Source of the DNA: Bacillota bacterium
GTDB lineage: Bacteria > Bacillota_I > Bacilli_A > RF39 > UBA660
Assembly (NCBI GenBank): GCA_021771185.1
Contig: JAETPN010000002.1
Coordinates: 69,297 to 133,296, forward strand
Reading direction: 5' to 3'
Length of the DNA stretch: 64,000 bases
The notes below the pieces were generated by a model. It was not told the DNA's origin and did not search any database. It saw only the letters and a program-made list of their open reading frames with translations. Shown piece by piece: positions 9,076 through 12,210 of the stretch (position 1 is its first letter; each line of letters begins with the position of its first letter). A program made the translations under genes and the position numbers.

Positions 9076-9404
9076 TATTTAATCAACCCCTTAATTAAAT
9101 GGTTATAAACTAAACCAATAAGAGAATAGATACTATCTAAATGACGACATAGAAAAATACTACATAAACAAGTTATGATAAACGATACCGGAAATAATAA
9201 ACGCATAGTATTAAAAATTTTAATAGTGTTAGGAGCAGTTAAAACATTAACAATATCACTAGGTATAGAAATATTAATTGGAAGTAATACAAAAACAGCA
9301 ACTAAAACTAATGACAATATACCAACGTTTGTAGCTTTACTCGTCAAATTTGAAACAGTTTCATAAATAAGAACACCTGCAACACCAGCTAATAAAGTAC
9401 CCAT
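9075..9404 (-). CDS. small multi-TM phage protein (pVI-like minor coat candidate)
   Basis: 109 aa, 3 predicted TM, translationally coupled to neighbours. Confidence 0.35.
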   Translation of the reverse strand: MGTLLAGVAGVLIYETVSNLTSKATNVGILSLVLVAVFVLLPINISIPSDIVNVLTAPNTIKIFNTMRLLFPVSFIITCLCSIFLCRHLDSIYSLIGLVYNHLIKGLIK

Positions 9405-11182
9405 TACACACCTCCTAAATTAAAATTATCTAAAAATCTTACAACTAATCTATAACATTTTAAAAACGTATATGAACCAATTATTAAAGTTACAAACGTT
9501 CTAAATAAACGCAACAAATTTTGCATTTCTTTAGTTGTAAAATTAAATATATATATATCATCTGAATCAATGTTAAATTTCTTTAAAAATGACAATTCTG
9601 ATAAATCTAAATGCATACATTGAATTTCACCCCAATTATTCGGATCAATCCCATAATTACAACCAAAATACATATCATCAATATCAACATAAAAGAAACG
9701 ATTATCTCCATAAGATGTAAAATCTAATTCTTTATATGTGTTGTAAAATAAACTAAATTGTCGTATAATTCCAAATTTATTATCAATTAACCAATCGAAT
9801 TTATCCTTAAACCACTGAAATATTTGTGCAATTGTAGTATCATTATCCAATGAATCATTAAGATCTTTCATATTGGAATCAATCAAATTTCCAAAAAAGT
9901 AATCCTCTTGATTTAAACTACCATCAGTTTTAATCTTGTTAATATCATTTATATCAAGTTTATAAGAATAAAGAACATTAGATTTATTTTTATCAGTAAC
10001 TTTAAAATATACGGTTCCATTTTCAACAAAAGTTAATTCCAAATCTTTTCTGCTTGAAATACTATAATTTTTACCATCGCTAGAAAAGTAATAATCAAAT
10101 TTTGTTATGTCATAAATATTCCAAGTAAATGAGTAAGTTTGAGAGATAACCGTATTAAATTCATCTTTTGTTTCATTTACTAATTTTGATGAAATAGATG
10201 GAGTATTCTTATTCAAATTAATAATTTCACTACCACCAACTTTATATTCTTTCCCTTTATAAACAATAGAATCATAAATTTTACCATCAAACCAATCATC
10301 TAAAGTACTACAATTAAAACTGAATTTATCAAAGTTTGTTTCAAAATAATAATCATCATTTTTTACAATATTTTCATTTCTAAACAAAAGTTTATTTGAA
10401 GAAAGAGAATAAGATAAAAAACTATAACCTTTATCAGAACTATCATATATATAATTATTTGGACCAAATATATATTCATATCTAGTATTTGTATTAGCAT
10501 CAATATAAATATTAATTTCTCCATCTTTGTGCTTAGCTGGACAACCATAAAAAGCAGTATCATCTTCAAAGCAAGTTAAATATATAGCCGGGAAATTACC
10601 ATTTTCATCATTATAAGTTTCCCAACCACCAGCAATAGAATAATATTTACATTCCGATGAATGTTCTTTAATGTAATTTTTAACATTCGTATAAATTTCA
10701 TTATAAGTTGAACTACCCTTACCGAATTTACTCAATGGGAAATTTTTTATTTCAACCGGAAATTTAAATGGTTTATTAACTTCTGTATAATTATTCATAA
10801 AAACAACAGTTCCACTACTATCTTTAACGTCGAAATTACCTAAATAATGTGCTTCATTAGTCTCTATGTGAGCAAATTTATCTTCGTAACAAGAATAATT
10901 TGAATCTTTAAAACTACAATATCTAAATCTTGAATATGCTTTAAATTCATATGTGGTTATACTTTTATTATTTAAATAAAAATCATTCATATTATCTTCT
11001 GTTAAATAAAAAACATAATAATCAAAATCAGGATTAGTCGAATTTATAATAAAAAAGTATGGATATTTATAATTATTAATATTAATAGTATTTCCACTAA
11101 AATTTAATTCTTTTGCACTCGCAGAAAAAATCAAAACAAAAAATAAACAAAACGAAAATATAAAATAATTAACTTTTTTCAT
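9404..11182 (-). CDS. secreted adsorption/minor coat protein (pIII-like)
   Basis: signal peptide ..LIFSASA/KEL, ~590 aa, Asn/Tyr-rich; start MKKVNYF with GAGGTG RBS (track ORF starts 11215). Confidence 0.45.
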   Translation of the reverse strand: MKKVNYFIFSFCLFFVLIFSASAKELNFSGNTININNYKYPYFFIINSTNPDFDYYVFYLTEDNMNDFYLNNKSITTYEFKAYSRFRYCSFKDSNYSCYEDKFAHIETNEAHYLGNFDVKDSSGTVVFMNNYTEVNKPFKFPVEIKNFPLSKFGKGSSTYNEIYTNVKNYIKEHSSECKYYSIAGGWETYNDENGNFPAIYLTCFEDDTAFYGCPAKHKDGEINIYIDANTNTRYEYIFGPNNYIYDSSDKGYSFLSYSLSSNKLLFRNENIVKNDDYYFETNFDKFSFNCSTLDDWFDGKIYDSIVYKGKEYKVGGSEIINLNKNTPSISSKLVNETKDEFNTVISQTYSFTWNIYDITKFDYYFSSDGKNYSISSRKDLELTFVENGTVYFKVTDKNKSNVLYSYKLDINDINKIKTDGSLNQEDYFFGNLIDSNMKDLNDSLDNDTTIAQIFQWFKDKFDWLIDNKFGIIRQFSLFYNTYKELDFTSYGDNRFFYVDIDDMYFGCNYGIDPNNWGEIQCMHLDLSELSFLKKFNIDSDDIYIFNFTTKEMQNLLRLFRTFVTLIIGSYTFLKCYRLVVRFLDNFNLGGV

Positions 11183-11192
11183 GAAACACCTC

Positions 11193-11756
11193 TTACCCTT
11201 TATAAACAACACCACGAAGCCAATTATATCCTTTAAAAATCATGAAAACACTAATAATTATTGAGATAATCAATGTTAAAACAACAATAAAATTATCAAT
11301 TAAAACACTGAAGTCTAATTTTGAAATCATAGTATAAAAATCAAATGGTTTTTTTGGCTCTATATAATTTTTTGAAAAAATAATTTCATTATTAGAATTT
11401 TTTAAATCAAACGAACTTAAATATTTCATATTTTCTTTAAATTCAAAAGATGATGATAAAAAAGTACTTGCATATTTATTACCGTTTGTAAAATAATTAG
11501 TATACTTACAAACTTTATTAGAAGATAAATAAATAGAACTAGAAGTTTGATTATTTACATAAAAATCACTCTCACAAGTAATAACATAATAGTCAATTAA
11601 ACTTCTTCCATTTCCCTCTCCAATAAAAAAATAAGGATAAGAATCTACATCTATATCAATTTTATGACTCTTAAAATCTAATTCTTGTGCACTCGCAGAA
11701 AAAATTAAAACGAAAAATAAACTGATTGAAAATACAAAATAATTAATTTTTTTCAC
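11193..11756 (-). CDS. secreted protein: paralogous pIII N-domain fused to coat-protein-like C-terminal TM anchor
   Basis: signal peptide near-identical to that of 9404-11182 gene; C-terminus SKLDFSVLIDNFIVVLTLII..KGYNWLRGVVYKG matches the 56-aa coat ORF; GTG start after AAGGAGGTG. Confidence 0.4.
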   Translation of the reverse strand: MKKINYFVFSISLFFVLIFSASAQELDFKSHKIDIDVDSYPYFFIGEGNGRSLIDYYVITCESDFYVNNQTSSSIYLSSNKVCKYTNYFTNGNKYASTFLSSSFEFKENMKYLSSFDLKNSNNEIIFSKNYIEPKKPFDFYTMISKLDFSVLIDNFIVVLTLIISIIISVFMIFKGYNWLRGVVYKG

Positions 11757-11851
11757 TCTTCCCACCTCCTTCTTTATCCTTTCTTTTAGAAGAAATCAAG
11801 GTATAAATTGCATAACCTAAACAAAATAAATAAATAAGCGTTAAAATATCA

Positions 11852-12022
11852 CTAAGTACCATACAATCCCACCTCCTTTTCATCATAAAAATCATGATAG
11901 CTAATATATTTTAAATCAACTTTCGTTGATATTTTTGAATAAAATAAGAAAAAGATGAGTTCAATAAAAGTAAATATATCCTCTTCTTTCGAAGAATCCT
12001 TAAAATATATAACTTTATACAT
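11852..12022 (-). CDS. small phage protein
   Basis: 56 aa from internal ATG with AGAAGGTGAG RBS; track ORF 11852-12070 overlaps coat gene out of frame. Confidence 0.25.
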   Translation of the reverse strand: MYKVIYFKDSSKEEDIFTFIELIFFLFYSKISTKVDLKYISYHDFYDEKEVGLYGT

Positions 12023-12039
12023 AAACTCACCTTCTCTAA

Positions 12040-12210
12040 CTAAGCTCCGTAAACCATACCACGAAGCCAATTATAACCCTTAGAAATAGCAGCGATTCCG
12101 ATTGTAACTGGAATAATTAATGTTAAAACAGCAATAAAATTATCTGTTAAAACACTGAAGTCTAATTTACTAACCATTTCTTGGAAAGCATTTACTGTGC
12201 TTGTTTCCAT
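12040..12210 (-). CDS. major coat protein candidate (pVIII-like)
   Basis: 56 aa METSTVNAFQEMVSKLDFSVLTDNFIAVLTLIIPVTIGIAAISKGYNWLRGMVYGA; single TM; AGGAGG RBS 9 nt upstream; below the ORF-track cutoff. Confidence 0.45.
   Translation of the reverse strand: METSTVNAFQEMVSKLDFSVLTDNFIAVLTLIIPVTIGIAAISKGYNWLRGMVYGA

Follow-up and report, generated by a model that had tools for sequence, protein, structure and literature searches.

The window analysed here, 64,000 nucleotides of contig JAETPN010000002.1 from a Bacillota bacterium, contains an inovirus (Tubulavirales) prophage of 6.5 kb, with ~6.47 kb between the dif-like repeats at its two borders. The assignment to the inoviruses is supported by a predicted Zot/pI-like ATPase, a predicted rolling-circle Rep and a canonical gene order. 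The size lies within the 5-10 kb taken to define a small genome, the replication, structural and assembly block reads in one direction, and the gene order is syntenic with that of two related loci, L004 and L011, the Rep gene being the last in this group.

The left dif-like site lies at 6992-7019 (reverse complement ACTTCGTATAATCTATATTATGTTAACT) and the right one at 13461-13488; one arm and the centre are identical in the two copies and the other arm is divergent. A 27-nt direct repeat at the left border is matched at 26 of 27 positions by 13468-13494, and both the GC skew and the gene orientation flip at the left site. The border sites resemble the dif sequence of Bacillus subtilis. With dif-like sites at both borders, a terminus location and no integrase of its own, the prophage has the features of an IMEX element. 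A 6647-bp Logan contig was considered as its excised circle and rejected, as the contig ends neither overlap nor coincide with the att repeats. A regulatory region (13015-13344) holds an HTH repressor gene on the plus strand (13084-13344; Pfam HTH_3 match), a divergent promoter-like site on the minus strand (13070-13042; the best sigma-70-like match, 11/12 with TG) and two direct repeats of ~30 nt (13015-13076; repeat family D9).

The genes of the block are all on the minus strand. Three upstream operon genes (12256-12913) encode proteins of 92, 81 and 41 aa, which are 32-40% identical to their L004 counterparts and occur in near-identical order in L011; they gave no family match in Pfam or PHROG, and from its position only, the 92-aa protein may bind ssDNA. 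At the other end of the block are a multi-TM protein of 109 aa (9075-9404), pVI-like by its position between the pIII-like and pI genes and 26-38% identical to its counterparts in L004 and L011, the pI/Zot-like assembly ATPase of 293 aa (8194-9075) and the rolling-circle replication initiator of 302 aa (7201-8109). The ATPase had a weak Pfam Zot match, two PHROG matches (197, 'Zot-like toxin', E 9.5e-6; 20922, E 9e-8) and, compared with the Zot/ATPase genes of gut inoviruses in the databases, an identity of 35-40%, and the initiator matched Pfam PF23343 (REP_ORF2-G2P, E 9e-19) and PHROG 3419 (E 7e-28). When all ten prophage proteins were scanned against Pfam and PHROG, the Zot and Rep matches were the only ones.

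Between these two groups lies coat56 (12040-12210), an ORF of 56 aa preceded by a Shine-Dalgarno sequence, which the initial annotation had proposed as a pVIII-type major coat protein. It lacks a leader and has the pVIII-type layout, a helix of ~45-60 aa with an acidic amphipathic N-terminal part, a hydrophobic core (aa 17-46) interrupted by a mid-helix proline, and a basic C-terminal end with K44 and R50. Homologues sit at the corresponding place in both L004 and L011, and the family comprises 54 small ORFs in 41 related loci, with the central proline retained in 53 of the 54. Its best database match was weak (PHROG 2186, 'virion structural protein', E 0.03), and neither Pfam nor a sequence search of the PDB returned a match. 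From its properties, its position and its conservation there in relatives, coat56 is inferred to be the major coat protein, in agreement with the earlier proposal. It is followed by s1 (11852-12022; 56 aa), a conserved candidate small minor coat protein encoded ahead of p187, which has a counterpart in L011 and shares 53% identity with the L004 ORF in the equivalent place, and by s2 (11743-11862; 39 aa), a conserved single-TM protein that is 43% identical to its L004 counterpart and present in L011 too.

Mosaic structure of p187

The stop of s2 overlaps by 14 nt the GTG start of p187 (11193-11756, minus strand; 187 aa), an intact ORF with a strong Shine-Dalgarno sequence that overlaps or abuts its neighbours. 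The ORF of p592 (9404-11182, minus strand), which also has a Shine-Dalgarno sequence, lies 10 nt beyond the p187 stop. The lengths of 190 and 590 aa first given for these two proteins were corrected to 187 and 592 from the starts that follow the Shine-Dalgarno sequences.

The product of p592 is a putative minor coat or adsorption protein made up of a signal peptide, an N-domain, a middle region and a C-domain, and is 36% identical along its length to the L004 protein p594. It had no Pfam or PHROG match, and its label 'pIII-like' stands for position and architecture only; neither p592 nor the p187 N-domain showed homology, in sequence or fold, to the N1/N2 or C-terminal domains of Ff g3p. The last ~110 aa of p592 are related to proteins that other inoviruses encode separately as a 'C-domain' (hhalign probability 98%, E 2e-13), a homology seen only by profile-profile comparison, as pairwise BLASTP against the downstream proteins of L006 and L008 was not significant.

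The alignments confirmed the chimeric nature of p187, in which an N-domain of the pIII type is joined to a C-terminus of the coat type. The C-terminus matched coat56 at 32 of 46 positions (E 7e-18 with compositional adjustment), with a Smith-Waterman score of 164 compared to 26 +/- 4 in 2000 shuffles (z = 32). Aa 4-153, in the numbering of the 190-aa ORF, matched p592 at 59 of 159 positions (37%, E 1e-22), and the mature domain gave z = 13 when shuffled on its own; the similarity to the pIII-like protein thus runs over ~140-150 residues instead of the ~60 first described. The similarity claimed at the nucleotide level was also found, reaching 83% in the signal-peptide block (aa 1-30, compared with p592) and 86-87% in two stretches of the coat/anchor block. 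Between these stretches, a central block of 10 codons is only 43% identical in nucleotides and the differences cluster non-randomly (permutation p = 5.5e-5), so that the two C-termini are homologous and not 'nearly identical'.

When the segments were compared one by one, different closest relatives were obtained. The signal peptide (aa 1-23, 11688-11756, ending in FSASA/QELDF) lies in a hydrophobic segment (aa 1-26) modelled by AF2 as a helix at 3-19, and resembles that of p592, the phage's own pIII-like protein, with which it shares 83% of its residues; over aa 1-30, the nt identity is 82-84% to p592 vs 60-69% to p594 of L004. In contrast, the mature N-domain (aa 24-139, 11340-11687) resembles a foreign, L004-type pIII N-domain: aa 24-140 are 66% identical to p594 vs 35% to p592, and the nucleotide identity to p594 over aa 31-133 is 69-89%. 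The core proteins of this phage and L004 are only 45-50% identical, and among the N-domains of p592, p594 and p566 the identity is 27-36%, compared to the 66% between p187 and p594. The mature N-domain is therefore not simply a paralogue of that of the neighbouring protein, which is closely resembled by the signal peptide only. The mature domain is beta-rich, an all-beta fold of 12 strands (aa 23-127) in an AF2 model of moderate confidence (pLDDT ~70). Fold searches with it returned nothing, and no characterised relative is known either for it or for the phage; a structure could be predicted, as had been suggested, without a known fold being matched. It ends in the motif SSFDLKNSNNEIIF, which is common to p592, p594 and the P0004 family.

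The coat-derived anchor (aa 140-187 plus stop, 11193-11339) is composed of an amphipathic segment, a TM helix and a basic tail, with a long AF2 helix at 149-186, and is 72% identical to the phage's own coat vs 37% to the L004 coat. The signal peptide and this single C-terminal hydrophobic helix are the topology elements of p187. The flanks of the anchor have few replacements compared to coat56 (dN 0.08, dS 0.52, dN/dS ~0.16, an estimate based on ~19 synonymous sites), which is read as selection. In the central 10 codons, proline, glycine and alanine have been lost and bulky residues gained, and p187 has a serine where coat56 has the mid-helix proline, 10 residues before the basic pair.

Segment by segment, these comparisons show p187, at the level of its sequence, to have been assembled via recombination from three sources: its own phage's pIII-like gene for the signal peptide, the pIII of a different, L004-like phage for the receptor-type N-domain, and residues 9-56 of the coat protein of its own phage for the anchor. 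In the syntenic relatives L004 and L011, s2 leads directly to the pIII gene, without a p187 gene. The sequences thus mark the event as lineage-specific, but the dS of ~0.5 in the conserved anchor blocks, together with the low dN/dS, indicates that it is not very recent, in contrast to the recent shuffling that the initial annotation had suggested.

Coat-anchored proteins in related inoviruses

Relatives of p187 were recovered depending on the sensitivity of the search. A word-indexed single-sequence search returned p187 alone, and an exhaustive HMMER search returned three further proteins and no second copy of p187, the gene being known from one genome. The wider family, of 185-242 aa and the same layout, surfaced only by profile search. 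In the viral contig collection, p187 as the first sequence gave 65 pattern matches, none of them confirmed by tblastn, and with its relative P0010 as the first sequence one IMG/VR locus alone was confirmed; tblastn of both against deposited phage genomes gave no match. Neither Pfam, PHROG nor structural matches were found for p187, the AF2 model of P0010 (pLDDT 60) was too uncertain for a fold search, and Pfam and PHROG scans of the coat-anchored, coat and C-domain proteins of the relatives gave no matches beyond Zot and Rep.

A class of proteins, here called N-A, was defined by a signal peptide, a variable beta-rich domain and a coat-paralogous helix, in which the ectodomain of ~110-180 aa ends in S-x-D-(L/I/V)-x-(D/N)-x-x-G-x-(V/I)-(V/I)-F and the last ~48 aa resemble a coat ORF of the same clade. 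The protein p187 carries this motif and a coat-like end (in-locus BLAST E 4e-15; HMM E 2.7e-17), and an HMM profile match ties it to P0004-P0018. N-A proteins are present in 16 of 68 related inovirus loci, although those of L024 and L026 have no obvious signal peptide. The mid-helix proline is missing in 15 of the 16 anchors. Therefore, the fusion is not a one-off, its architecture being an established one in related phages, nor is its C-terminus the plain coat-protein anchor first described.

In loci with an N-A gene, the structural block usually encodes no other exported protein longer than 100 aa; in L006, L007, L008 and L071 the N-A product is the only one above this size in the block with a signal-peptide-like N-terminus. 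Where a large pIII is lacking, the N-A gene is followed by a separate gene whose product resembles the p592 C-domain, by the profile comparison given above. Anchors are most like coats from the same clade (in the W clade, a score of 164 vs 44 or less for coats of other loci), a tracking that is at clade level only, as in the large clade of relatives the anchor was no closer to the coat of its own locus than to those of sister loci. Within the class, variation is greatest in the N-domains, with ~21% identity vs 71% for the coats. The idea that these ~200-aa proteins might be processed into coat subunits by removal of a pro-domain was rejected because the phages concerned carry separate small coat genes.

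In L061, the anchor of an N-A protein shares 57% identity with the coat of that phage and the next gene is pIII-like with a paralogous N-domain (E 3e-23), a second, independent case of such a pairing. The identity of p187 to the other N-A proteins is 13-23%, and its common descent with them was not supported. As each of its segments is far closer to the pIII and coat genes of the W clade, and its close relatives do not have the gene, p187 most likely works like the N-A class but arose separately. The class itself, so far undescribed, is widespread in gut filamentous phages.

Possible role of p187

On balance, p187 is probably a lineage-specific accessory adsorption protein that is incorporated into the virion, a role inferred by analogy. 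Its N-domain would be exported by Sec and released from the signal peptide by cleavage after ASA, leaving the protein in the membrane in an N-out/C-in orientation as expected for a coat protein; all Ff capsid proteins are single-TM proteins with this topology before assembly (PMC10175506). With this orientation, and with the amphipathic outer segment and the basic DNA-facing tail that it would share with the coat, the proposal is that p187 would be taken into the extruding filament by the pI/Zot machine through coat-type helix packing, and the virion would then expose a second type of receptor domain beside that of p592. The remodelled centre of the helix, with its proline lost as in nearly all N-A proteins, suggests that p187 takes a specialised position, such as a ring adjoining the tip cap, instead of substituting randomly for the coat along the shaft.

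The same remodelling could hinder packing among coat subunits and cause p187 to be retained in the membrane, where it might act as a decoy for superinfection exclusion, its L004-type domain occupying or masking the receptor of competing L004-type phages and its coat-like tail being a convenient inherited anchor. This is the less likely reading but a serious rival, with an N-domain of a competitor's type rather than the phage's own in its favour, as well as anchors that, without the mid-helix proline and small residues of the coat, might prevent extrusion. Expression of N-terminal fragments of Ff g3p renders cells resistant to infection. In Pf4, inovirus structural proteins, pIII included, have been reported to participate in superinfection exclusion (PMC11436027). 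However, a simple anchor has no need of an amphipathic segment and a basic tail nearly identical to those of the coat and kept under purifying selection, p187 lacks a promoter-like site immediately before its gene and belongs to a structural operon with a repressor-controlled promoter, and where relatives have no large pIII, a protein of this design is their sole candidate for adsorption.

A structural function at the tip, with p187 as a coat-like ring joining the coat lattice to the p592/pVI-like cap and its N-domain serving assembly or stability, would fit the location of the gene between the small minor-coat-like genes and the pIII-like gene, the existence of anchors as a class distinct from coats and the C-domain protein encoded beside N-A genes. 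It is nevertheless improbable, as the two closest relatives assemble without such a protein and the variability of the N-domains compared to the coats is typical of host-recognition modules.

Still less probable is that p187 is a functionless product, not yet decayed, of recombination between filamentous phage genomes that shared a host or lay in tandem. The gene is found in one genome only, its mosaic make-up points to recombination, whether illegitimate or homologous, and Xer-integrating (IMEX) filamentous phages often adjoin each other at dif (PMC5357621), but its 187 codons are intact and tightly coupled to the neighbouring genes behind a Shine-Dalgarno sequence, few replacements have accumulated in the flanks despite a dS of ~0.5 from the coat, and p187 converges on the features of the class, including the loss of proline, with L061 as a second independent case. 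Finally, that the similarities are artefacts of an Asn/Tyr/Phe/Ile-rich composition, conceivable in a genome of 23-30% GC with compositionally biased proteins, is refuted by the pairwise alignments, which are colinear and significant (E 7e-18 and 1e-22) under composition-based statistics, with shuffle z scores of 32 and 13 and long runs of identical codons.

If p187 is indeed a virion protein, its presence would explain how very small phages could change or widen their host range, and would amount to a natural bispecific phage display with two receptor specificities in one phage. Knowledge of how filamentous phages attach their receptor proteins comes almost entirely from the Ff phages of E. 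coli. The sequences compared here point to another arrangement, with a duplicate of the coat helix as the likely mount for a variable receptor-type domain, and they show the modules (signal peptide, receptor domain, anchor of coat type and cap domain) to be reshuffled between genes and phages. More tentatively, inoviruses of gut Firmicutes and Mycoplasmatota in general may have a tip architecture so far undescribed in the filamentous phages studied, with the receptor domain on a specialised coat-helix paralogue and a 'C-domain' cap that is separate or can be fused separately; repeated recombination of pIII-type N-domains with the coat gene may give rise to new proteins of this kind, and so to phages with two specificities. 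The p187 design would be a natural precedent for coat-fusion display, with a scaffold that may serve Gram-positive or wall-less hosts, and it gives a means of annotating, in gut metagenomes, a class of proteins for which Pfam and PHROGs have no entry.

Comparison with known filamentous phage systems

The prophage as a whole can be compared with the IMEX filamentous prophages CTXphi, VGJphi and TLCphi, which integrate at dif with the host Xer recombinases. Like them, it has no integrase and is bordered by dif-like repeats with one arm and the centre identical and the other arm divergent (PMC5357621), and it sits at a switch of GC skew and gene strand. Unlike them, it is a putative Xer-dependent element, and its host is a low-GC Mycoplasmatota/RF39-like organism, not a proteobacterium.

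With the pIII of Ff phages (M13/f1/fd), p187 would share export by a signal peptide, a single C-terminal helix as anchor, the N-out/C-in orientation before assembly and a modular organization, with an N-terminal part for host recognition and a C-terminal part for the filament tip (PMC10175506, PMC10480500); its gene also lies just upstream of pVI-like and pI genes. It differs in that the anchoring helix is demonstrably paralogous to the major coat protein of the same phage, and in that the tip 'C-domain' is a separate gene in many relatives of this phage.

The arrangement is also close to engineered type 88 pVIII display, in which a wild-type gene VIII and a recombinant gene VIII fusion in one genome give mosaic virions. 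In both, an unfused coat gene is accompanied by a second gene encoding a signal peptide, a foreign domain and a coat helix with the same topology, and a passenger of ~115 residues would be expected to be tolerated at low copy only. In contrast to the engineered fusions, p187 is natural and a candidate virion protein, and the loss of proline in the remodelled centre of its helix suggests that it may take a special site.

The pIII proteins of filamentous phages exchange receptor-binding domains, for example between Ff and IKe/I2-2 or in CTXphi pIII. Here too, N-terminal modules appear to have been exchanged between phages and the C-terminal assembly part is lineage-specific, but the captured module was placed on a second, coat-derived scaffold and not into pIII, so that two types of module coexist in one phage.

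Mosaic composition of the 187-residue protein

An exhaustive HMMER search with the 187-aa protein p187 (11193-11756, minus strand), covering 1.84 billion representatives, returned only four proteins: p187 itself, the adjoining 592-aa pIII-like protein p592 (9404-11182, minus strand), P0002 (594 aa) and P0004 (205 aa). P0002 is encoded on L004, a syntenic phage contig of 8.1 kb whose proteins share 26-61% identity with their window-phage counterparts (pI 45%, Rep 50%, coat 43%, pIII-like 36%).

The nearest relative differs between the segments of p187. The signal peptide (aa 1-23) is closest to that of p592 of the same phage (83% aa identity), with p594, the pIII-like protein of L004, lower. 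The mature N-domain (aa 24-140), the first part of which was described in the initial annotation as paralogous to p592, does show 35% aa identity to that protein but is closer to p594 (66%), whereas the last 47 residues are closest to the phage's own 56-aa coat-like protein, coat56 (12040-12210, minus strand; 72% aa, against 37% for the L004 coat). A sliding nucleotide comparison likewise placed aa 1-30 nearest to p592 (82-84%; p594, 60-69%), aa 31-133 nearest to p594 (69-89%) and aa 140-187 nearest to coat56. The p187 gene is absent from both syntenic relatives, L004 and L011 (the latter with a pI about 70% identical to that of the window phage), in which s2, the small gene that precedes p187 in the window, is directly followed by the pIII-like gene. 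The simplest reading is a recombinational capture, in which the window lineage would have acquired an L004-type pIII N-domain and joined it on one side to the signal peptide of its own pIII and on the other to a duplicate of its own coat helix; we infer the order and mechanism of these events from the sequences.

The initial annotation had regarded the p187 C-terminus as nearly identical to a pVIII-type coat protein, and its first 60 or so residues as paralogous to the pIII-like protein, at the nucleotide level too. A coat-like C-terminus was indeed found, coat56 aligning to it without gaps (32/46 residues identical, E 7e-18; z 32 against shuffles), but near identity was limited to two blocks of about 85-87% nucleotide identity, broken by a central 10-codon block only 43% identical in which the differences cluster non-randomly (p = 5.5e-5). 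The N-terminal homology to p592 is colinear (37%, E 1e-22; z = 13 against shuffles for the mature N-domain), but it extends over about 150 residues instead of 60, with 83% nucleotide identity in the signal-peptide block. The colinear protein alignments, the shuffle z-scores and the nucleotide identity therefore rule out low complexity as the source of these similarities. In its physical properties coat56 agrees with a pVIII-type coat, as had been proposed, but it matched no curated family. The pIII-like label of p592 is justified by position and architecture only, and no similarity to g3p domains turned up. The original observation is confirmed; its interpretation is partly supported and refined.

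The prophage and its borders

The p187 gene sits in a block of co-oriented minus-strand genes at about 7.0-13.5 kb of the window, which also encodes a 293-aa Zot/pI-like ATPase (PHROG 197 and 20922; 35-40% identity to Zot/ATPase genes of deposited gut inoviruses) and a rolling-circle Rep (PF23343, E 9e-19). An HTH repressor gene is transcribed divergently from the phage operon, and the best sigma-70-like site (13070-13042, minus strand) lies between them. Two direct repeats of ~30 nt (AGCATTCAAATG...) at 13015-13076 overlap this promoter-like site and are likely operator sites.

A 27-nt direct repeat, 26/27 identical, is present on both sides of the block (core 6999-7025 and 13468-13494) and corresponds on the other strand to a dif-like site (6992-7019 and 13461-13488), with one arm and the centre identical between the two copies and the other arm divergent. 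Both GC skew and the strand bias of gene orientation flip at the dif-like border, and no integrase gene was found in the element. Taken with the gene content, these features identify it as an inovirus prophage of ~6.5 kb integrated at the chromosomal terminus. On the features tested, the phage qualifies both as an inovirus and as an IMEX-like element, and its integration into the terminus of what resembles a Mycoplasmatota chromosome looks Xer-dependent (IMEX-type). The host is low-GC, and the nearest relative of the phage was found in a Candidatus Pelethosoma (Mycoplasmatota) genome.

L001, a 6647-bp Logan contig from an independent assembly of a sequencing run (SRR13008605), is identical to window positions 7086-13732. 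Its ends are offset from the att repeats, and it was rejected as a circle or as evidence of excision.

Related anchored proteins and their modules

A search with a profile made from p187 and P0004, together with aligned N-domains and coats, returned metagenomic proteins of 185-242 aa. Each of them has a signal peptide followed by a domain of high variability, and both the motif that closes this domain and the coat-like C-terminus are conserved. This design of signal peptide, variable domain (N) and coat-like helix or anchor (A) defines a protein class and not a one-off. Loci L006, L007 and L008 are small inoviruses without a large pIII, in which one or two small coat genes are followed by those of a small acidic TM protein, a ~200-aa protein, a 140-227-aa protein, a pVI-like protein and pI. 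The ~200-aa product is the only protein above 100 aa in the structural block with a signal-peptide-like N-terminus, and over its final ~48 residues it shares about 40% identity with that phage's coat.

Scanning the pI alignment against one genome per species yielded 64 further loci. With an HMM of the coat/anchor helix, 54 small coat-like ORFs were detected in 41 loci, and coat-like C-termini on proteins of ~110-236 aa (N-A proteins) in 16 of 68; a signal peptide was present in most of the latter, being not obvious in L024 and L026, and L018 is a partial ORF. The window anchor scored 164 with the coat of its own phage and no higher than 44 with coats of other loci, and in the two other clades, too, anchors resemble coats from the same clade.

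Tandem pairs of paralogous small coat genes were seen in L006 (428-859), L008 (2367-2786), L010 (4372-4740) and L061 (876-1241). L057 carries an identical 230-aa N-A gene twice (639-1331 and 6234-6926), about 5.6 kb apart on one contig, pointing to either a tandem prophage or a concatemer in the assembly. Closely related inovirus contigs (L071, L015, L016, L017 and L019) were binned into Methanobacteriota archaeon, Muribaculaceae, Dysgonamonadaceae, Thermosipho and Bacteroidota MAGs, probably because small contigs were mis-binned; the hosts given in these records are therefore not to be trusted.

Homology, at a profile-profile probability of 98% (E 2e-13), links the C-terminal ~110 residues of large pIII-like proteins such as p592, p594 and p566 to separate 140-250-aa proteins encoded directly after N-A genes, a relationship missed by pairwise BLASTP. 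Therefore, three modules can be distinguished: the variable domain N, the coat-type anchor A and a cap-type domain C. They occur as N-A with a separate C protein, as N-middle-C fused in one protein, or as an N-A protein adjoining a large signal-peptide-bearing protein (the window phage, L024, L026 and L061). No Pfam or PHROG family covers N-A proteins, clade-B coats or C-domain proteins, and p187 and the database protein P0010 have no relative in deposited phage genomes.

L061 is a second case resembling the window arrangement: the anchor of its N-A protein shares 57% identity with the coats of the same phage (E 8e-17), the sole match for the N-domain is the N-terminus of the adjoining pIII-like gene (31-33%, E 3e-23), and the signal peptides of the two are very similar. 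Both phages have an anchor that resembles the coat unusually closely, which fits repeated formation of N-A genes. The 422-aa pIII-like protein of L061 (2403-3671) aligns with just the N-terminal two thirds of a 620-aa protein of L064 (4824-6686; 51% over aa 198-422) and is without a C-terminal anchor; it may be truncated through a frameshift or assembly error, and a 145-aa ORF then follows.

Anchor specialisation and the proposed role of p187

In a joint alignment, a proline lying 10 residues ahead of the basic pair was present in 15/15 aligned coat ORFs and in 0/11 aligned anchors. This mid-helix proline was kept in 53 of the 54 coat-like ORFs that the HMM census drew from L004-L074 and the window, and missing from 15 of the 16 anchors, the exceptions being a small ORF of L030 (5333-5506) and an anchor protein of L053 (5242-5919). 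Between the window coat and the window anchor, Pro-Val-Thr-Ile-Gly is changed to Ser-Ile-Ile-Ile-Ser inside the replaced central block. The window anchor comes from the window coat and yet shows the class-wide proline change; anchors are specialised, not plain coat copies. The proline loss and remodelled centre favour a defined structural position, for example adjoining the tip cap, rather than random replacement of coat subunits along the shaft.

The sequence shows the mosaic origin of p187, its layout of signal peptide and single C-terminal helix, the homology of this helix to the coat and a selection signature. The protein can be described as a variant of an inovirus minor coat or adsorption protein with a putative virion place and function. 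We lean towards a virion-incorporated accessory adsorption protein. It would be exported via Sec, cleaved after ASA, which would leave QELDF as the mature N-terminus, and held N-out/C-in in the membrane, the topology predicted for Ff capsid proteins before assembly (PMC10175506). It would then be taken into the extruding filament through coat-type contacts, and the virion would thereby expose a second receptor-type domain. The proline loss is also the main argument for a membrane-held decoy that would block L004-type competitors, which we consider rather unlikely, the precedent being the action of Pf4 structural proteins in superinfection exclusion (PMC11436027). As a further alternative to an adsorption protein, p187 might be a structural tip adaptor with no receptor role.

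The p187 gene has a Shine-Dalgarno sequence (GGAGGTG), its start overlaps the stop of the conserved upstream gene, and 10 nt separate its stop from the start of p592. For the two conserved anchor blocks compared with the coat gene, dS was about 0.52 and dN about 0.08, an estimate based on only about 19 synonymous sites; on this estimate, the extramembrane amphipathic segment and basic tail have been held coat-like by selection. Judged by this dS, the formation of p187 was not very recent, so that of the 'recent domain shuffling' originally suggested the mosaic origin stands and the timing does not. The gene looks functional, and a recombination relic is an unlikely alternative.

A limited literature search found no account of inovirus adsorption proteins with coat-paralogous anchors, which does not prove that none exists. 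The modular, recurrent and sequence-traceable assembly of a coat-anchored receptor module would be relevant to phage biologists and phage-display engineers alike. Engineered 'type 88' display vectors follow the same logic as the mechanism proposed for p187.
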